Positions 2,299-10,867 of a stretch of DNA of 32,000 bases are shown here, piece by piece. The notes below the pieces were generated by a model that saw only the letters and a program-made list of their open reading frames with translations, did not search any database and was not told where the DNA came from. The stretch spans positions 1,170,001 to 1,202,000 of the forward strand of contig MGBH01000001.1 of NCBI GenBank assembly GCA_001790095.1, given 5' to 3'. The position numbers and the translations under genes are program-made. The DNA is from Candidatus Saccharimonadota bacterium (lineage in GTDB: Bacteria; Patescibacteriota; Microgenomatia; UBA1406; GWC2-37-13). Numbering within the stretch: position 1 is the first letter of the stretch; the number at the start of each line of letters is the position of its first letter.

Positions 2299-3225
2299 AT
2301 GGATATTAAACAAATATATTTAGTATCTCCCAGGGGGTTTTGTGCTGGTGTAAAAAGAGCAGTGGGTATAGTTGAAGCAGTATTAAAAAAATACGGTGCT
2401 CCCATATACATAAGACATCATATCGTACACAACGTGCATGTAGTGAAAGGCTTTGAGAGTCAAGGTGTGATTTTTATCGAAGAGCTAGAAAAAGTACCTG
2501 ATAAATCCGTTGTAGTTTTTAGCTCACATGGTAGTCCACCATCCTTATATACGATGGCAAAGAAAAAAAATCTGATCCTATATGATGCAACATGTCCCTT
2601 GGTAATAAAAGTTCATTTGGAAGCAAAACGATATGCAATGATGGGTTATTTTATTATCTACATTGGACAAAAAAATCATCCCGAAGCAATAGGGGTTTTA
2701 GGAGAAGTATCAAAGGAAAGCATAGTTCTTATTGAAAGGATAGAGGATCTAGATAAAGCTAGGATCCCAAAAAATAAAAAGAAAATTATTCTCACTCAAA
2801 CCACCTTAAGTTTTGATGATACGAAAATTCTTGTGGAACAGATTCAAAAAAAGTATCCACTCGTTATACTTCCACCAGTATTTGATATATGTTTTTCTAC
2901 CCAAAACCGGCAAAATGCAGTAAAAGCATTAGCAAGGAAAACAAAAACGATTATAGTAATTGGATCAAAGGCTAGTTCAAACAGTAATAAACTGAGATAT
3001 GTTGCTGAAAAAGAAGGGGCTAAGGCATACCTTATAGATGATGAAACTGATATTAATATCAAATGGTTTAAAAACATTGAGTCGGTTGGTATTACCGCAG
3101 GGGCATCAGCGCCGGAACAATTGGTAAAACGAGTAACAGCTTTCTTCTCAGGTGATCAAACGATTATTAAAGATATAGAAACTATTCGGGAAACAGTTGC
3201 ATTTCCCTTTCCAAAAAGCATATGA
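2299..3225 (+). CDS. ispH: 4-hydroxy-3-methylbut-2-enyl diphosphate reductase (IspH/LytB)
   Basis: The three cluster-ligand Cys contexts are present: PRGFCAGVKRA, DATCPLVIKVH and DICFSTQNRQ. Length is 308 aa. Confidence 0.93.
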   Translation: MDIKQIYLVSPRGFCAGVKRAVGIVEAVLKKYGAPIYIRHHIVHNVHVVKGFESQGVIFIEELEKVPDKSVVVFSSHGSPPSLYTMAKKKNLILYDATCPLVIKVHLEAKRYAMMGYFIIYIGQKNHPEAIGVLGEVSKESIVLIERIEDLDKARIPKNKKKIILTQTTLSFDDTKILVEQIQKKYPLVILPPVFDICFSTQNRQNAVKALARKTKTIIVIGSKASSNSNKLRYVAEKEGAKAYLIDDETDINIKWFKNIESVGITAGASAPEQLVKRVTAFFSGDQTIIKDIETIRETVAFPFPKSI

Positions 3226-4319
3226 AACATATAGTTGTGTTGGGATCTACGGGAAAAATTGGAAAAGCTGTCTTGGAGATTGTAAGGGCTTATAAAAACG
3301 AATTTAAAATTATTGGTCTCTCGACAAATAAAAATAAAGATTTGCTTAGGGAACAAATTCAAGAATTTAAGCCGCTAGCTGTAGGTGTTGGTGAAAAAGA
3401 TTTAGTTACTTTAGCTTCAATGCAACAAGCCGACATGGTAGTTGTTGCGGTTGTTGGTATGTCTGGGCTTGCTCCAACACTTGCCGCAATAAGGAAGGGT
3501 AAAGACATTGCCCTTGCCACAAAAGAAGTATTAGTTGTTGCAGGAGATCTGGTTATGAAGGAGGCAAGAAAACATAATGCTAATATCGTTCCTATTGATT
3601 CAGAGCATTCGGCACTATTTCAATCGTTACAAAGTGGAAGAAAAAACGAGATAAAACGACTTATTCTTACCATGGGAAAAGGACCGATTGCTAAGATGAA
3701 GAAGAAAGAGTTACGTAACGTAACAATCAAAGACATCCGAAATCGACCAGTATGGGATATGGGAAGCAAAATAATGATAGATAGCGCTACTTGCTTAAAC
3801 AAAAGTTTTGAGGTGATTGAGGCGCGTTGGTTGTTTGAGGTTTCTCCCGAACAAATTTCCATTGTTGTTCATCCTGAATATATTTGTCACTCGCTTGTTG
3901 AGTATAAAGATGGAAGCATTATTACAGAACTAGGTACTCCCGACATGAAACGTTATATTCAGTATGCACTTTTTTATCCTAAGAGGAAAGAGATGAGAGT
4001 TACGAAAGGAATAGACTTAGTTGGGAAAAAACTTAGCTTTGAAAAAGCACCTTTTGAAAAATTTCCCGGATTGCACTTGGGATTTGATGCAATTAAAAAA
4101 GGAGGGACAATGCCTGCAGTACTTCACGGCGCGGATGAAGCCGCTGTTAAATCTTTTTATGATGAAGAGATAGCCTTTGTTGACATACCACAGGTCATAA
4201 AAAACACAATGGATTCTCATGAGGTAACACAAAACCCTACACTAAAAAATATTCTTGAAGCAGAGATATGGGCGCAAACATATGCAAGATCTTTTATATC
4301 ACAAATGAAAAATGAATAA
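3222..4319 (+). CDS. dxr: 1-deoxy-D-xylulose-5-phosphate reductoisomerase
   Basis: N-terminal NADPH-binding motif VLGSTGKIGKAVLEI. PIDSEHSALFQ motif. It overlaps the ispH stop in ATGA. Confidence 0.93.
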   Translation: MKHIVVLGSTGKIGKAVLEIVRAYKNEFKIIGLSTNKNKDLLREQIQEFKPLAVGVGEKDLVTLASMQQADMVVVAVVGMSGLAPTLAAIRKGKDIALATKEVLVVAGDLVMKEARKHNANIVPIDSEHSALFQSLQSGRKNEIKRLILTMGKGPIAKMKKKELRNVTIKDIRNRPVWDMGSKIMIDSATCLNKSFEVIEARWLFEVSPEQISIVVHPEYICHSLVEYKDGSIITELGTPDMKRYIQYALFYPKRKEMRVTKGIDLVGKKLSFEKAPFEKFPGLHLGFDAIKKGGTMPAVLHGADEAAVKSFYDEEIAFVDIPQVIKNTMDSHEVTQNPTLKNILEAEIWAQTYARSFISQMKNE

Positions 4320-4989
4320 AACAATCTCAGTAATATTAACCGCTGCTGGTAATGGGTCAAGAATAGGAGCTCATAAGATTCTTATGTTGATTAAAGGTAA
4401 ACCCTTGATATGGTATACCTTGAAACACTTTAGTAGGGTAGAGAGAGTTGATGAAACTATTGTTGTAGCCAAACAGGAAGACTTTGAGAAACTACATTCC
4501 ATAGCAAAAGACGCTGGTATTTCAATAAAAACAGTTAAAGGAGGAAGTGAAAGGATAATTTCCGAATATAATGGTGTTATGGCTTCAAAGGGTGATTTTA
4601 TTATCACTCATGACGGATGTCGACCTTTCCCCCCCAAAAGAGTAATTGAAAACGTGATTAGTGCGGTCATAAAATATCCAGCAGTGACTGTTGGTGTGCA
4701 TCCAACAACAAGTATCAAATACAGTACTGGATCCTATATTCAAAAATCGCTCACAAGAAAATATACATACATGGGACAGACCCCACAAGGATTTAGGCGA
4801 AATATTATTATCAATGCACTTAAAAAGAATATTAAAAAGAAATTTTACATACCGACAGACGATGCTGAGTTGGTTGCCAATATGGGAATTAAGGTTAGAA
4901 TTGTTCAGGGAGATGAGGTTAATATAAAAGTCACACATCCCAAAGATGTGTTCATCGCAGAAAAAATATTAGAAGTTTATAAAGCATAA
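4312..4989 (+). CDS. ispD: 2-C-methyl-D-erythritol 4-phosphate cytidylyltransferase
   Basis: N-terminal ILTAAGNGSRIG (AAGxGxR P-loop-like motif). Length is 225 aa. It overlaps dxr by 8 nt. Confidence 0.9.
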   Translation: MNKTISVILTAAGNGSRIGAHKILMLIKGKPLIWYTLKHFSRVERVDETIVVAKQEDFEKLHSIAKDAGISIKTVKGGSERIISEYNGVMASKGDFIITHDGCRPFPPKRVIENVISAVIKYPAVTVGVHPTTSIKYSTGSYIQKSLTRKYTYMGQTPQGFRRNIIINALKKNIKKKFYIPTDDAELVANMGIKVRIVQGDEVNIKVTHPKDVFIAEKILEVYKA

Positions 4990-4992
4990 CAT

Positions 4993-5478
4993 ATGTTTAA
5001 AGTTGGAATAGGTCAAGACAGCCATAAAATTCAAAAACATACAAAATCAAAAAAACCTTTGATATTAGGCGGTGTAATCATAGATAAAAACATAGAGGTA
5101 AAGGCCGATTCGGATGGCGATATACTTATCCACAGTTTGTGTAATGCGATAAACACCGCACTAGGTTTGGGATCATTTGATATTTACGCTGGACCTTTAT
5201 GTAGGTCTGGAGTCACAGACAGTAAAGAATATCTCCTTATTGCTTCAAACAAGATTAAACAAGCAGGGTACTTGATTAGCAATATTTCAATCATGATCGA
5301 AGCAGGGTATCCTCGACTTGAAACCTACAGAAAGAAAATAGTTGCATCGCTTTCCGCGATACTACATCTTGATAAAAACAGTATAGGAATTGCCTCAACC
5401 AGCGGTGATGGTTTAACTAGTTTTGCAAAGGGAAAAGGCATCCAATGTTTTTCAATAGTTAGTCTTATGACAAAGTGA
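4993..5478 (+). CDS. ispF: 2-C-methyl-D-erythritol 2,4-cyclodiphosphate synthase
   Basis: VGIGQDSHKI and DSDGDILIHSLCNAI match the IspF metal-binding His/Asp motifs. Length is 161 aa. Confidence 0.9.
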   Translation: MFKVGIGQDSHKIQKHTKSKKPLILGGVIIDKNIEVKADSDGDILIHSLCNAINTALGLGSFDIYAGPLCRSGVTDSKEYLLIASNKIKQAGYLISNISIMIEAGYPRLETYRKKIVASLSAILHLDKNSIGIASTSGDGLTSFAKGKGIQCFSIVSLMTK

Positions 5479-6416
5479 TAAAAGCAAAGGCTTATGCAAA
5501 ATTAAATCTAAATCTTCACGTCCTGCCTGATCAAGAATATAAGCAAAAGACGGGCTATTATCCAATTCGTTTTATTAATTGTAATTTGGAATTGCATGAC
5601 GAACTATATTTTGAAGAGCAAAAAAGAACAATTGATTTTACTTGCGACGATAAAGAGCTTTCAAACGGAGATAATTTTGTCTATAAAACAGCATTTTTTT
5701 TAAAGTCTCTCATCAATGAAAAGGAACGAGGAATCAGAATTTTACTCAAAAAACATATTCCGGTTAAAGCTGGCTTGGGTGGAGGAAGCAGTGATGCAGC
5801 GACAACTTTATATTACTTATCAAGATTATGGAATATAAAATTAAATCAAAATCAAATCCATTTTTTGTTGGAAAAGATAGGAACAGACACTTTCTATTCT
5901 TATAAAGAAGGAGTTTGTGAGGTTGGTGGGTACGGAACTGAAAATACTTGTATTTTTAAAGTAAATAAAAACTGTTTTTTTCATAAAAGAAAATGTTTAT
6001 CGGTTAATAACACTGATAAAACATGCAAGTTGTCTCAAATTCCTCGGATATGGATGATATTAGTAAATCCCGAAAAGCAAAAACAATCAACTGCATGGAT
6101 GTATCATAACTTGAATCTTTCCAAAATAGGAAAGAATCTCGCTATGTATGATGCACTAAAACAAGCCATTCACAAAAAAAATAAGGGCAAGATAGTTAAA
6201 TCCGTATTTAATGATTTTGAACAGCTGGTAAAGGAAGGGGATGAAGAAACTTTGGAGATTGAAAAAAGATTATATAATATGGGAGCTGATAAAGTATTTA
6301 TTGCAGGCTCAGGACCAACTATTGTTGGATTATATTTATCTAAAAAAAAGTCGCTTGAGGCCTCTCAATATTTAAAAATTAAGTATAAACAAACTATATG
6401 GACACACACAAGGTAA
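5475..6416 (+). CDS. ispE: 4-diphosphocytidyl-2-C-methyl-D-erythritol kinase (GHMP family), with an internal insertion
   Basis: N-terminal AYAKLNLNLHV. GHMP motif IPVKAGLGGGSSDAATT. The GTG start overlaps the ispF stop (GTGA). An extra segment of about 26 aa relative to E. coli IspE is described in findings. Confidence 0.85.
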   Translation: MIKAKAYAKLNLNLHVLPDQEYKQKTGYYPIRFINCNLELHDELYFEEQKRTIDFTCDDKELSNGDNFVYKTAFFLKSLINEKERGIRILLKKHIPVKAGLGGGSSDAATTLYYLSRLWNIKLNQNQIHFLLEKIGTDTFYSYKEGVCEVGGYGTENTCIFKVNKNCFFHKRKCLSVNNTDKTCKLSQIPRIWMILVNPEKQKQSTAWMYHNLNLSKIGKNLAMYDALKQAIHKKNKGKIVKSVFNDFEQLVKEGDEETLEIEKRLYNMGADKVFIAGSGPTIVGLYLSKKKSLEASQYLKIKYKQTIWTHTR

Positions 6417-7522
6417 TGACTAGGAAAGAAACAAGGGTAGTTAAAATTGGAAAAATAAAAATTGGAGGAGGTAATTTGGTTTCAGTACAGTCGATGACAC
6501 AGACAAAGACTTATGATGTTGACTCTACTGTTAAACAGATTCATCTTCTTGAAAATGCAGGGTGTGAAATCATTCGAGTGGCAACATCGGACATGCAGTC
6601 TGCTAAAGCAATCGGCGAGATAAAGAAACAGATACATATTCCGCTCGTTGCAGATGTTCAATTTCAATATCTCTGTGCCCTTGAAGCTATAAAACAAGGT
6701 GTTGATAAGATAAGATTCAATCCAGGAAATATTGGTTCAAAGGAAAAAGTTGAAGCGATTGTCAACGCATGTAAAGATAAAAACATTCCCATACGGATTG
6801 GTATAAATATGGGTTCCCTTGAAAAGGATTTATTTGAGAAGTATGGCAAATATGGTGTTCCACGAGTTATGTTGGAGTCGGCTACCAGACACATAAAAAT
6901 ACTTGAAGATCTAAAATTTTATGACATTGTTATATCGCTTAAAGGCTCTGATGTCAATATAACAAAAGAGGCGCATTTGTTATTTGCGAGTAGGTTTAAT
7001 TATCCGTTACATGTGGGTATCACCGAAGCAGGTCCGGTTTGGAGCGGAACGATAAAAAGCGCGGTAGGTATAGGATCGATACTTTCTGAAGGAATTGGAG
7101 ATACAATAAGAGTATCAATCAGTGGCGACCCACAGGAGCAAGTACGGATTGGATGGGAAATATTGAAAACCTTGAAATTAAGACAAAAAGGAGTAGAAAT
7201 TATCTCTTGTCCAACATGTGGAAGAACAGAGATTGATCTCATCGGATTGGCTGCAAAGGTTGATACAATGCTTAAGTTGGTTGATGCCCCGATAAAAGTA
7301 GCCGTTATGGGATGTGTAGTAAACGGACCGGGGGAAGCAAGTTTTGCTGATATCGGATTATGTGGGGGGAAAAAACAAGCGGCGATAATAAAACAGGGTA
7401 GAGTGGTCAAAACCGTTCATGAAAAGGAGATGTTAAGAGTATTCATAGAGGAAATAAAAAAAGTACTCAAAGAAAAAAAATTCGAAAAGGAAATAAAAAA
7501 TATACGCAATAAATATGAATAA
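6416..7522 (+). CDS. ispG: 4-hydroxy-3-methylbut-2-en-1-yl diphosphate synthase (IspG/GcpE)
   Basis: VKIGKIKIGGGNLVSVQSMTQTKT at the N-terminus. C-terminal Cys ligands in ISCPTCGRTE and VMGCVVNGPGE. I prefer the ATG at 6416, which forms TAATG with the ispE stop. The track start at 6398 is the alternative. Confidence 0.92.
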   Translation: MTRKETRVVKIGKIKIGGGNLVSVQSMTQTKTYDVDSTVKQIHLLENAGCEIIRVATSDMQSAKAIGEIKKQIHIPLVADVQFQYLCALEAIKQGVDKIRFNPGNIGSKEKVEAIVNACKDKNIPIRIGINMGSLEKDLFEKYGKYGVPRVMLESATRHIKILEDLKFYDIVISLKGSDVNITKEAHLLFASRFNYPLHVGITEAGPVWSGTIKSAVGIGSILSEGIGDTIRVSISGDPQEQVRIGWEILKTLKLRQKGVEIISCPTCGRTEIDLIGLAAKVDTMLKLVDAPIKVAVMGCVVNGPGEASFADIGLCGGKKQAAIIKQGRVVKTVHEKEMLRVFIEEIKKVLKEKKFEKEIKNIRNKYE

Positions 7523-8432
7523 AGTTAAAGTATCAGCTCCTGGTAAATTATTGTTATTGGGAGATCATGCAGTGGTATATGGATATCCATGTTTGGTCAC
7601 CGCTGTTGATAAAAGACTGTACGTTGAGGCAAGAGTGATTGAGGCAGATAAGGATGATATAGTTACCCCTCAAGTAAAAGAGAGCAGATTTGTTTTGGAG
7701 TCTCTTGCTCATTTCAAAAAGAAATATAACATAGTTTCTTCAATCCGCATAAGAACAAAAGGTGATTTTTCGCATCGGGTCGGTCTTGGATCATCATCGG
7801 CGGTAACGGTCGCAACTTTTAAAGCATTAAGCGTACTTTTTAAGATTGATCTTACGAAAAAAGAGTTGTTTGACATGGCCTATCAAGTCACTCTACTTAT
7901 CCAGGGAGTTGGATCAGGATTTGATATTGCAGCTGCCACGTATGGTGAGACACTATACTATATTCGTGGGGGCAAGACGATTGAAACATTACCTATGAAA
8001 ACTCTTCCTTTAGTGGTTGGTTATTCAGGGATTAAAGCTGACACTCCTTTTTATATAAGGCAAGTTGCAGAGGCCTTTCGATTAAAAAAAGATGAGATGA
8101 AGCGCATATTTACCTCCATGCAGAATATAGTTGAGGAAGCAAGGGGAGCTGTTTTGAGGGGCGATATGAAAAATTTCGGGACCTGCCTTACGGCAAATCA
8201 CATGCTTTTGCAACAGCTAGGAGTGAGTACAAAAAAGCTTGATCTTATGGTGGAGGCTTCTTTAAAAAGCGGTGCTTGGGGAGCAAAACTCTCAGGAGCA
8301 GGGGGGGGAGACTGTATGATTGCGCTTGTCGATGATACTCTAAGGGGAAGCGTTGAGGATGCGATACGGAGTGTTGGTGGAAAGATAATTGAAGTACAAG
8401 TCAATACAAATGGTGTTACTATTGAAACATAA
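7515..8432 (+). CDS. mvk: Mevalonate kinase (GHMP family, archaeal-like)
   Basis: VSAPGKLLLLGDHAVVYG (motif 1). VGLGSSSAVTVA (motif 2). QGVGSGFDIAAA, which contains the catalytic Asp. KLSGAGGGDC (motif 3). It overlaps ispG by 8 nt. Confidence 0.8.
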   Translation: MNKVKVSAPGKLLLLGDHAVVYGYPCLVTAVDKRLYVEARVIEADKDDIVTPQVKESRFVLESLAHFKKKYNIVSSIRIRTKGDFSHRVGLGSSSAVTVATFKALSVLFKIDLTKKELFDMAYQVTLLIQGVGSGFDIAAATYGETLYYIRGGKTIETLPMKTLPLVVGYSGIKADTPFYIRQVAEAFRLKKDEMKRIFTSMQNIVEEARGAVLRGDMKNFGTCLTANHMLLQQLGVSTKKLDLMVEASLKSGAWGAKLSGAGGGDCMIALVDDTLRGSVEDAIRSVGGKIIEVQVNTNGVTIET

Positions 8433-8433
8433 T

Positions 8434-9432
8434 ATGCCAAATCCTAGGATGGATATGAAAAAAACAGCGCAGGCTCCATCCAATATCGCATTCGTAAAAT
8501 ACTGGGGTAAAAAAGATGAAAAATTACGTCTTCCGGCCAATGCAAACATTTCGATGAATTTGAGCAATCTCAATACTGTTACCACAGTGGAGTTTGATCC
8601 TTCATTAAAGACAGATGCAGTCTCTATTACAGACAATCAGGAGGAAAAGGCGATATCAAAAGTTGTACGTCACCTTGATAGGATACGAAACGTTGCTCAT
8701 ATAAGTCTTTATGCAAAAGTGATATCGCGCAATAACTTTCCTTCATCAACAGGACTTTCATCATCAGCCTCAAGCTTTGCAGCGCTTACTCTTGCTGCTT
8801 CTTGTTCTGCAGGATTGTCTCTTAATGAAAAAGAACTTTCCATTATGGCGCGTTTAGGTTCGGGATCCGCATGTCGGTCAATACCTGATGGGTTTACAGA
8901 ATGGTTGGAAGGAGAGGATACAAACAGTTCTTATGCAGTATCTCTTTTGCCCGCAAGTCACTTTGATATAGTTGATATAGTTGCGATTGTAAGCAATGAA
9001 AAGAAAGAGATTCCAACGACCGAAGGTCATGCTCTGGCCCAAACAAGTCCTTTTTACCAGACAAGATTAACACATATAAAGAGTAAAATTATACAGTGTA
9101 AGAAGTTTTTACACAAAAAAAACTTCACAGCACTTGGAGAACTTATCGAAAAAGAAGCTCTTGAGATGCATGCGATTATGATCACCTCATCTCCACCCCT
9201 CATCTATTGGCTTCCAACAACAGTCTCTCTTATGAAGCAGGTGCAAACATGGAGAAAAACGGGACTCGAATGTTATTTCACTATAAATACCGGTCAGGAT
9301 ATTCACATCATCTGTCGCTCAAAAGATAAAGAACGAGTGAAGGAGAAATTACAGAGTATTAAAGAAGTTAAAAGAATAATTGTCAATATTGCATCTAAGG
9401 GAGCCCATCTTATCAGCGATCATCTATTCTAA
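8434..9432 (+). CDS. Diphosphomevalonate decarboxylase family protein (atypical active site)
   Basis: APSNIAFVKYWGKKD, STGLSSSASSFAAL and ARLGSGSACRSI match MVD-family motifs. The ATG at 8434 follows the mvk stop by 1 nt (ATGs at 8449 and 8455 are also possible). The position of the classical catalytic Asp reads Asn (see findings). Confidence 0.8.
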   Translation: MPNPRMDMKKTAQAPSNIAFVKYWGKKDEKLRLPANANISMNLSNLNTVTTVEFDPSLKTDAVSITDNQEEKAISKVVRHLDRIRNVAHISLYAKVISRNNFPSSTGLSSSASSFAALTLAASCSAGLSLNEKELSIMARLGSGSACRSIPDGFTEWLEGEDTNSSYAVSLLPASHFDIVDIVAIVSNEKKEIPTTEGHALAQTSPFYQTRLTHIKSKIIQCKKFLHKKNFTALGELIEKEALEMHAIMITSSPPLIYWLPTTVSLMKQVQTWRKTGLECYFTINTGQDIHIICRSKDKERVKEKLQSIKEVKRIIVNIASKGAHLISDHLF

Positions 9433-9801
9433 TTATGGCGCGGGGGTGATTTGAGGTAATGTAATTTTAAAATCTTTACCAATGCCAAATTTTCCTCCAA
9501 GCACCGTTCCCATCACGAATGAAAAGATGGTAAAAGCAACCACAATCATAAGAAGTCCAATGACCGCATTCATCATTTTACTTTGAGCTTTTTGCAGTTT
9601 TTCTTTTTGACCTTCAGACATGATCCAGTCAAACGCTCCCCATAAAAGATAGATGAGGGTGGCGATCCCCCCGACAAATAAAGATATCTGAATAAAAAAG
9701 GTGATGAGATTACCTACTCCCTGGACCGGATCATTACCGACAAAGCTGCTGCCAGGCGGGGCATTGACTGTGCCAAAGATCTGTCTAACATCGTTATTCA
9801 T
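9433..9801 (-). CDS. TrbC/VirB2-like (type IV secretion pilin-like) small membrane protein
   Basis: 122 aa with two hydrophobic helices flanking LLWGAFDWIMSEGQKEKLQKAQSKM. This is the helix-loop-helix pattern I associate with the TrbC/VirB2-like pilins that are common in CPR genomes. The family call is from memory. Confidence 0.5.
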   Translation of the reverse strand: MNNDVRQIFGTVNAPPGSSFVGNDPVQGVGNLITFFIQISLFVGGIATLIYLLWGAFDWIMSEGQKEKLQKAQSKMMNAVIGLLMIVVAFTIFSFVMGTVLGGKFGIGKDFKITLPQITPAP

Positions 9802-10094
9802 ATAATCATCTCAATATTAAATACATATCCTAATAATTTTACAATAAGATAACTGCACAATACAATCACAAGTCCTATTGCGGCTGATGTCAGGATGCCT
9901 TGTGCTTTTTTCATGTTTTCAGGAGTTCCACCGCTTGTTATCCAAGTGAAAGCGCCTATAACAAGCATCACCAGAAAGACAAGGCCAGCTCCAACCATCA
10001 GAATTGGCGTAAGGACATTTATAATGGAACCAAGATTTGAGATGCCTGCAATAGGATTGACCGTCTTATCTGCGAAGTTAATAGCATATACCAT
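9798..10094 (-). CDS. TrbC/VirB2-like small membrane protein (paralogue of 9433-9801)
   Basis: 98 aa with the same architecture: ...LVMLVIGAFTWITSGGTPENMKKAQGILTSAAIGLVIVL.... It overlaps the downstream paralogue by 4 nt (ATGA). Confidence 0.5.
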   Translation of the reverse strand: MVYAINFADKTVNPIAGISNLGSIINVLTPILMVGAGLVFLVMLVIGAFTWITSGGTPENMKKAQGILTSAAIGLVIVLCSYLIVKLLGYVFNIEMII

Positions 10095-10168: not shown

Positions 10169-10867
10169 ATGGAAAATTCACATGTACCCTTTCATGTTGC
10201 AATAATCCCTGATGGAAATAGAAGATGGGCGAGGGAGCACGGACTACCTACCTTTGAAGGGCATAGAAGAGGATTTGAAAATATCATGAAAGTAAGCAGA
10301 AGAGCGCGTGAGATGGGAGTTCACATATTCACCATCTGGGGTTTTTCAACTGAAAACTGGAAACGTACGGTTGAGGAAGTAGGATATCTTATGAAGTTGT
10401 ATGAACAAATTATTGATACCCAATTAAAAGTAGCTCTAAAGGAGAAAACGCGAATTATTCACATGGGAAGAAAAAATAGAATCCCGAAAACTCTACTTAA
10501 TAAGATCGTAAACGCCGAAGAAAAGACAAAGCATTTTAATGAATATTATTATGCAGTAGCACTTGACTATGGAGGGCGTGATGAGATTCTTCGGGCTGTA
10601 AGCCAACTCTCAAATGTTAAATCTGATAAATTAGTTTTGAAGGAAGAGGATATTTCTCGGTTTTTGGATACAAAAAATCTTCCACAACCAGACCCTGATC
10701 TTATAATTAGAACAAGCGGTGAAGAACGGATGAGTGGATTTATGTTGTGGCAATCTGCATATGCAGAATATATGTTTGTAAAAAAACACTGCCCTGATTT
10801 CAAAGTCGCGGATTTTGAAGAATGTATAAAAGAATATAAGCTTCGGAAACGAAGATTTGGCAAATAA
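10169..10867 (+). CDS. uppS: Undecaprenyl (isoprenyl) diphosphate synthase, cis-prenyltransferase
   Basis: HVAIIPDGNRRWA motif. FSTENWKR. IRTSGEERMSGFMLWQSAYAEY. Length is 232 aa. Confidence 0.92.
   Translation: MENSHVPFHVAIIPDGNRRWAREHGLPTFEGHRRGFENIMKVSRRAREMGVHIFTIWGFSTENWKRTVEEVGYLMKLYEQIIDTQLKVALKEKTRIIHMGRKNRIPKTLLNKIVNAEEKTKHFNEYYYAVALDYGGRDEILRAVSQLSNVKSDKLVLKEEDISRFLDTKNLPQPDPDLIIRTSGEERMSGFMLWQSAYAEYMFVKKHCPDFKVADFEECIKEYKLRKRRFGK

Follow-up and report, generated by a model that had tools for sequence, protein, structure and literature searches.

The part played by the active-site aspartate in the decarboxylases of the MVD family is debated, the residue having been regarded as a general base, as a hydroxyl-orienting residue, or as a stabiliser of a carbocation. 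This text concerns a gene of that family, on the + strand at positions 8455 to 9432 of a 32,000-nucleotide stretch of DNA (the window: contig MGBH01000001.1 of assembly GCA_001790095.1, positions 1,170,001 to 1,202,000, Candidatus Saccharimonadota bacterium), the product of which has an Asn-Thr pair in place of the usual Asp-Ala pair, and the locus in which this gene follows the genes of the methylerythritol phosphate (MEP) pathway. Aoki et al. 2022 (PMC9254496) reported that the Asp is conserved in diphosphomevalonate decarboxylase (DMD), phosphomevalonate decarboxylase (PMD), and mevalonate-3,5-bisphosphate decarboxylase (MBD), and that it is absent only in mevalonate-3-kinase (M3K), a non-decarboxylating enzyme.

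Chen et al. 2020 (PMC7414129) proposed that the Asp orients the 3-hydroxyl (3-OH) rather than acting as a general base, phosphoryl transfer being dissociative; the same authors considered that it may stabilise a later, carbocation-like state, and placed a metal near it. The residue is D283 in the S. epidermidis enzyme and D282 in that of E. faecalis (PMC7414129), while in the PMD of Anaerolinea thermophila (AthPMD) the corresponding Asp280 is described as a substrate-contacting residue (PMC9254496). The D281T and D281V mutants of the S. solfataricus DMD (SsoDMD) still phosphorylate, and so are 3-kinases, but have lost decarboxylation (PMC9254496, PMC7414129). The D281N mutant, by contrast, keeps its DMD activity (Motoyama et al. 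2017, as relayed in PMC9254496), whereas PtoMBD D309N is inactive (PMC9254496). Two premises of the initial annotation of this gene are overturned by this literature: the loss of the Asp is not a feature of MBD, which keeps it (PtoMBD D309), M3K alone being without it (PMC9254496), and the view that Asp substitutions cripple 3-OH phosphorylation is outdated, given what is relayed of SsoDMD D281T, D281V, and D281N.

The mevalonate (MVA) gene set of the candidate phyla radiation (CPR) was described by Hoshino and Gaucher 2018 (PMC6107057), who found MEP genes to be sparse in the CPR and reported isopentenyl phosphate kinase in some of its members; active-site residues are not discussed there. 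Our literature searches found no paper on an Asn variant in the CPR or on MEP-MVA hybrid operons. Thus, unlike the CPR mevalonate genes themselves, the Asn-Thr substitution and the hybrid operon of MEP plus lower mevalonate genes are not described in the literature searched.

The gene and the elements within it that matter here are as follows.

8455..9432, + strand: MVD-family gene (GHMP superfamily), from the scan of open reading frames (ORFs), profiles, and predicted fold; product of 325 residues
8497..8511, + strand: KYWGK motif, with Lys19 at the AthPMD N20 specificity position
8752..8772, + strand: GLSSSAS, the GHMP phosphate-binding loop (P-loop), placed by alignment
8857..8880, + strand: GSGSACRS, with the invariant Arg141 at 8875-8877, aligned with the Arg of S. 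epidermidis GSGSASRS
9286..9288, + strand: Asn278, codon AAT, aligned with the catalytic Asp (D280 in AthPMD, D283 in S. epidermidis)
9289..9291, + strand: Thr279, codon ACC, a co-varying second change; Ala in Asp-type enzymes
9298..9300, + strand: Asp282, codon GAT (the D of GQD), at the place held by the Asn of DAGPN in classical enzymes; variable among Asn-type enzymes

In the frame of the enclosing + strand ORF (8389..9432), positions 9274-9300 read TAT TTC ACT ATA AAT ACC GGT CAG GAT, that is, Y-F-T-I-N-T-G-Q-D. A phmmer comparison with PDB sequences aligned this motif without gaps both to YTLDAGPNVH of A. thermophila (6n0x, E 8.6e-89) and to FTMDAGPNV of the S. aureus (2hk2) and S. epidermidis (3qt5) mevalonate diphosphate decarboxylases (MDDs). 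Instead of the Asp conserved by the family in (F/M)-D-A-G-P-N, the protein therefore has Asn278, followed by Thr279, and its motif departs from the classical one at four of five residues. The codon reading and the ungapped alignments bear out the initial annotation, which had placed an Asn at the classical catalytic position, and so does the spacing on which it had relied, Arg141 and Asn278 being 137 residues apart. It had also described the other conserved elements as intact; indeed, the motifs for ATP and substrate (KYWGK, GLxSSAS, GSGSAxRS with its Arg, and the loop Lys, K184) are all present. We take S. epidermidis R144 to be the counterpart of Arg141, and its role to be that of the carboxylate-binding Arg.

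A sequencing error or a one-off mutation was ruled out because at least 20 contigs of various origin, the longest of 1.2176 Mb, encode the identical protein and because Asn occurs throughout the clade. The population variants of the protein are all identical save for one C-terminal chimera. The latter, P0407 (a JGI contig of 2117 bp), is identical as far as EVKRII (window ~9380-9432) and then continues with ~56 other residues, a tail that looks like a RelE/ParE-type toxin; it reflects either a 3'-terminal insertion carried by some strain or an assembly chimera.

The start codon is most likely the ATG at 8455, judging from the sequence, because AGGA precedes it and because the resulting 325 residues are the length of nearly all homologues; the alternative upstream starts are the ATG at 8434 and the TTG at 8389. 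The 325-residue form is NCBI OGK63163.1, where it is named diphosphomevalonate decarboxylase. Membership of the MVD family is clear from the TIGR01240 profile (255.8 bits against a cutoff of 171.35), and Pfam matches were obtained with PF22700 (MVD-like_N, 180.6 bits) and PF18376 (MDD_C, 55.8 bits). An AlphaFold2 model built from a 90-sequence alignment (mean pLDDT 96.9) has the two-domain GHMP fold and can be superposed on solved MDD and PMD structures: its best Foldseek match is 6n0x/6n0y/6n0z (TM 0.94, rmsd 1.8 Å, 44-45% identity), and the S. epidermidis, S. aureus, and E. faecalis MDDs give TM values of 0.91-0.94.

The Asn is not peculiar to this genome. Among the 120 closest homologues (56-67% identity), which come from Levy-, Gottesman-, and Roizmanbacteria, the motif is F-T-x-N-T-G-Q-(D/N), with Asn in 119 and Ser in one, which settles positively whether Asn is conserved in related genomes, a check that the initial annotation had proposed. 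Loci were then compared under the numbers L001 onwards. In 38 loci of GTDB species representatives, 30 have N-T-G and eight D-A-G; in 80 metagenome loci, 76 are of the Asn type and two of the Asp type, the other two being unread. The two sets together have Asn in ~106 of 118. The family at large is different in composition: 150 representatives taken at 50% clustering include 129 with D-A, 11 with N-T, and two with D-T. Among the N-T-G loci of GTDB are Microgenomates with NTGQ[DN], a Paceibacteria-like group with NTGFN, and one Peribacteria-labelled locus with NTGQN, while the D-A-G loci are four from Chloroflexi, two from Altiarchaeum, and two in a CPR-like context. Across the 150 representatives, the only columns that discriminate the Asn type from the Asp type are residues 278 and 279; R141, the GSGS motif, K184, E232, H239, and R267 (325-residue numbering; R148, K191, E239, H246, and R274 in the 332-residue numbering) are conserved in both. 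The Asn-Thr proteins thus appear, on this sequence comparison, to constitute a CPR-wide subtype of the MVD family in which the active-site Asp-Ala has become Asn-Thr.

The Asp and Asn forms look evolutionarily interchangeable because both occupy the same operon slot (Asp-type genes are found there in other CPR loci, L014, L019, L128, and L130) and because the Asp-type protein of L047 (11669-12688, FTIDAGPN) is most similar to Asn-type sequences, being 61% identical to that of L001. In a neighbour-joining tree with 100 bootstraps, L047 nests among the Asn types with 41% support. Monophyly of the Asn type was accordingly rejected as a conclusion, the backbone support nowhere exceeding 41%. The position of L047 hints that its protein has reverted or that D and N have been exchanged repeatedly, four motif positions changing in concert.

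Some records in these sets call for comment. The Asn-type tblastn matches in L095 and L117 hold an in-frame stop and may be pseudogenes or sequencing errors. In P0121 (646 residues), P0126 (630), P0145 (608), and P0266 (619), the MVD domain is the C-terminal half, and these proteins may be kinase-decarboxylase fusions. Several GTDB records of metagenome-assembled genomes with CPR synteny (L003-L005, L008-L012, L014, L016, L017, L019, L029, L030, L033, L035, and L036) are titled 'uncultured Gammaproteobacteria' or 'Pseudomonadales bacterium', which look like mislabels; one of the isolate names includes 'PATE'.

In relatives, the Asn-type gene is the terminal gene of a complete mevalonate operon in 51 loci with enough flank (22 from GTDB and 29 from metagenomes). 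The order is HMGR, HMGS, an archaeal-type thiolase, a DUF35/OB protein, a second GHMP kinase (here K2), mevalonate kinase (MVK), sometimes an IDI-like NUDIX gene, and the MVD homologue; many of the loci also have uppS next to the operon. No second MVD-family gene occurs in the fetched stretch of the 51 complete operons, a scope that does not extend to paralogues elsewhere in the genomes. K2, for which the literature name is PMVK, exists in forms of ~310 and ~350 residues and scores 150-181 bits on the MVK model (cutoff 163) but 31-75 bits on phosphomevalonate kinase (PMK) models; examples are found in L015 (7657-8595), L007 (5787-6842), L044 (11118-12050), and L046 (10125-11042). Three Asn-type loci on long contigs, L064, L112, and L113, have K2-MVK-MVD only: no HMGR, HMGS, thiolase, or MEP gene lies within 10 kb, and the upper pathway of these genomes is either located elsewhere or absent.

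The locus of the present genome is different in that MEP genes stand where the upper mevalonate genes stand in its relatives. Its other features are given below.

2299..7522, + strand: ispH (2299-3225), dxr, ispD, ispF, ispE, and ispG, from profile matches
5475-6416, + strand: ispE, borderline on TIGR00154 (138.0 bits, cutoff 138.7)
7515..8432, + strand: MVK, TIGR00549 200 bits against a cutoff of 163, overlapping the end of ispG by 8 nt
9433-10094, - strand: a pair of small convergent genes, weakly matched by T4SS-pilin models of Pfam, abutting the stop codon of the MVD gene
10169..10867, + strand: uppS (cis-prenyltransferase), a downstream consumer of isopentenyl diphosphate (IPP), conserved beside the operon

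The flanks are those of the MVA-type loci L015, L006, and L018: on the left a sigma factor and a 216-residue protein, and on the right the pair of pilin-like genes together with uppS and Fic. Every Roizmanbacteria-like locus, MVA-type and MEP-type alike, keeps the pilin-like pair here. The slot of the six MEP genes holds HMGR, HMGS, thiolase, DUF35, and K2 in L015, L006, and L018, and in L015 and L006, though not in L018, MVK and MVD are separated by a NUDIX gene. In the present genome, the upper MVA genes, K2, and the IDI-like NUDIX gene are all absent from the locus. Moreover, none of the 120 best relatives of the L015 HMGR lies on this organism's 1.2176-Mb contig, which hints, if weakly, that HMGR has gone from the genome. 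The DXP synthase gene dxs, for the entry step of the MEP pathway, was found neither in the window nor in the 9-10 kb around each of the MEP-type loci inspected (L042-L050). The MVK retained here aligns with the M. mazei enzyme 6mde, keeping the Lys, the P-loop, and the Asp (GSGFD against ASPTD); this Asp is presumably the catalytic residue of MVK. The GC content of the MEP block is 31-38%, against ~40% for MVK and MVD, and composition gives no sign of a recent foreign origin for the block. All that this locus retains of a mevalonate operon is MVK and the MVD homologue, an MEP operon having displaced the upper half, the second kinase, and the IDI-like NUDIX gene; the pair is either an accessory branch (using, for example, external mevalonate) or a remnant not yet lost.

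The contexts of close relatives of ispG at the same locus form a graded series. The window segment compared was 2299-9432, alongside L015 (4056-10981), L044 (5434-13946), L047 (4778-12688), L049 (1023-7166), L046 (4957-11042), and L050 (4465-10122). After ispG, the lower mevalonate genes are as follows.

L049: K2-MVK-NUDIX-MVD
L044 and L045: K2-MVK-MVD
L047: MVK-NUDIX-MVD
Window, L042, and L043: MVK-MVD
L046: K2 only
L050: none of the lower mevalonate genes

One Curtissbacteria locus has MEP genes only. As regards the MVD type in MEP loci, L044 and L047 have Asp, the window has Asn, and L049 is probably also of the Asn type, its partial sequence being 84% identical to the Asn-type L039. The series shows that the lower mevalonate genes can be lost once the MEP genes are present. 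The MEP genes are themselves old, to judge from ispH, which is only 53-67% identical between MEP-type lineages; ispE is the most divergent MEP gene (40-66%). MEP-type and MVA-type loci are interleaved among close relatives: the Fic of the window is 88% identical to that of L015, and the Fic of L046 is 89% identical to that of L006. This interleaving would be due either to differential loss from an ancestor with both pathways or to cassette exchange.

The reading that we favour, and hold to be probable though far from assured, is that the Asn-Thr protein is a catalytically competent natural variant that in this genome would be accessory or recently made redundant. Competence as an ATP-dependent decarboxylase is suggested by its being the sole MVD-family gene in 51 complete operons with the rest of the active site unchanged. 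The enzyme would use ATP to phosphorylate the C3 hydroxyl of 5-phospho- or 5-diphosphomevalonate, and elimination of the phosphate with decarboxylation would then give isopentenyl phosphate (IP) or IPP. Where other members of the family have a carboxylate, the carboxamide of Asn278 may position the 3-OH and might also reach the metal close by, while the hydroxyl of Thr279 would be a co-adapted, compensating second change. By analogy with the one enzyme for which this is reported, SsoDMD D281N, a carboxamide here would be compatible with the full reaction. As to the individual protein, it deviates at two of 47 family-wide conserved columns (the mean of the others is 1.8), and a relative-rate test against L015, which has a complete MVA operon, revealed no acceleration for either MVK or MVD. 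The ORFs of MVK and MVD are both complete and follow ispG in tight packing, and a ribosome-binding site precedes the MVD gene.

Several observations weigh against this reading. At 121 columns conserved in the subtype, the protein deviates at five (S31N, G107S, A118S, L131M, and W170F), against a mean of 1.7, a count attained by no more than 5% of homologues. The Lys and His at the positions of AthPMD N20 and H194 give a mixed substrate signal, and the second kinase of CPR operons is closer to MVK than to PMK. This locus lacks the upper pathway as well as the second kinase and the IDI-like gene, and relatives have lost the lower genes step by step. The yeast D302N mutant reportedly loses kcat ~10^3-fold. 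D309N likewise abolishes the activity of the P. torridus MBD (PMC9254496). On the analogy of such mutants, Asn would not be universally tolerated at the Asp position.

Some of these observations bear on the possible, though doubtful, explanation that the gene is vestigial, the MEP operon supplying both IPP and dimethylallyl diphosphate and leaving MVK and the MVD homologue as functionless leftovers that have yet to decay; the Asn would then have no bearing on how the cell lives today. In favour of it are the excess of deviations at subtype-conserved columns, the absence of the upper genes, K2, and NUDIX from the locus, the lack of any of the 120 best relatives of the L015 HMGR on the contig, and the reductive series L049 to L044 to L047 to window to L046 to L050. 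Against this stand the intact and packed ORFs with their ribosome-binding site, the normal rate, and the normal state of the family-wide conserved sites. Moreover, MVK and MVD are retained together in four of six MEP-type lineages, the MEP genes of which are 55-85% identical, and so long a survival in a genome of ~1.2 Mb argues against uselessness. That the protein might be a non-catalytic paralogue, as the initial annotation suggested, is unlikely for the family as a whole, the Asn-type gene being the only one of its kind in the fetched stretch of 51 complete operons, while the copy in this genome is possibly dispensable. It is also conceivable, if rather unlikely, that the Asn-Thr enzymes form a distinct subclass (carboxylate-free decarboxylases or 3-kinases) which, with two MVK-like kinases, makes up a CPR-specific lower pathway, the MVK-MVD pair being a salvage branch in MEP-type Roizmanbacteria; mevalonate from a host or the environment would then feed an MEP-based isoprenoid metabolism via this pair. 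Another alternative is that Asn-Thr abolishes elimination and decarboxylation, so that the protein would be a 3-kinase of phospho- or diphosphomevalonate, leaving the rest of the pathway to a different protein or to a spontaneous reaction. The conversion of SsoDMD into a 3-kinase by loss of its Asp (D281T and D281V; PMC9254496, PMC7414129) speaks for this, as does M3K, which is the only natural family member without the Asp and does not decarboxylate (PMC9254496), and so does the Thr that adjoins the Asn. Yet the specific mutant D281N keeps decarboxylase activity in the account given by PMC9254496, the 51 complete operons contain no second MVD-family gene or other candidate decarboxylase, the Asp and Asn types share both operon slot and partner genes, and the M3K model (NF040848) gives 45.2 bits against a cutoff of 440. 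This alternative is hence quite improbable.

Two further proposals of the initial annotation were rejected. One, which we regard as very improbable, was a relocated base: Asp282, at the other end of the hairpin loop, would have taken over from the missing Asp. It does lie at the position of the Asn of classical DAGPN, which resembles a D/N swap, and the AlphaFold2 secondary structure puts residues 277-282 in a short loop between two strands. However, position 282 is D or N in Microgenomates; L015, L006, and L018 have Asn there, as does the entire NTGFN group, in each case within a complete operon, and so do ~11 of the 120 closest homologues. Since Asn stands there in complete operons, a carboxylate at 282 is not required by Asn-type enzymes. 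The other proposal, which is extremely improbable, was an MBD-like, ATP-independent decarboxylase of a substrate already phosphorylated at the 3 position. Its one support was the loss of the Asp, and this is not an MBD feature, since MBD keeps the residue and is inactivated by D309N (PMC9254496). The present protein conserves its ATP-site motifs, the P-loop and Lys184 among them, the MBD model NF040847 gives 71.8 bits against a cutoff of 560, and the operons contain no M3K-like gene. Membership of the MBD or M3K groups was ruled out by these model scores together with the literature.

The significance of these findings is threefold. A large natural clade of Asn-Thr enzymes is a ready-made natural test of ideas about the role of the Asp. 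For annotation, it means that CPR proteins named 'diphosphomevalonate decarboxylase' diverge at a residue described as common to every decarboxylase in the literature considered here. Lastly, the replacement of the pathway at the level of the locus is a second and arguably equally interesting finding: a switch between the MVA and MEP pathways has long been inferred for bacteria, but we know of few places where it is visible gene by gene, and this locus captures the replacement of MVA by MEP at a single chromosomal site, with every intermediate stage preserved in relatives.

Of the known enzymes, the closest is AthPMD, a Chloroflexi PMD (6n0x, 6n0y, 6n0z), which is both the best sequence match (E 8.6e-89) and the best structural match (TM 0.94). 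The window protein resembles it in length, fold, P-loop, Arg, and Lys, and has a His at the H194 specificity position, but it has N278-T279 instead of D280-A281 and Lys instead of Asn20. The Lys at position 20 is as in diphosphomevalonate decarboxylases. In Asn-type relatives, the first specificity position (Lys in the window) is K, R, or V and the second (His in the window) is Q, H, or M; an N20K/H194M specificity mutant of AthPMD is named in PDB titles. Decarboxylase specificity can be switched (PMC9254496). The PMD equivalog NF040704 (MvaD), a haloarchaeal model, gives 184.7 bits against a cutoff of 475, and the PMD route of Chloroflexi and haloarchaea is further distinguished by isopentenyl phosphate kinase, for which the 32-kb window has no gene, containing no member of the amino-acid-kinase family.

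The classical DMDs (3qt5, 2hk2, and 6e2u) have the KYWGK Lys in common with the window protein, which passes TIGR01240 and superposes on them with TM values of 0.91-0.94, and the CPR operons, with two kinases and an MVD homologue, are like the classical route (Hoshino and Gaucher 2018, PMC6107057). The differences are Asn-Thr for Asp-Ala, His (Gln in relatives) where the classical enzymes have Met, and a second kinase that is MVK-like where the classical route has a canonical PMK. SsoDMD D281N shows the same substitution of carboxamide for carboxylate and, as summarised in PMC9254496, keeps decarboxylase activity; it is, however, an engineered point mutant without the accompanying change of Ala to Thr. 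M3K, from Thermoplasma and Picrophilus, shares the absence of the Asp with the window protein and is the only characterised natural member to do so (PMC9254496), but M3K and MBD are both distant by profile score, and MBD keeps the Asp. M3K acts on free mevalonate in organisms without MVK; here, an MVK gene lies directly upstream, and the operon context, unlike that of the M3K/MBD systems, is that of a conventional MVK-based pathway.

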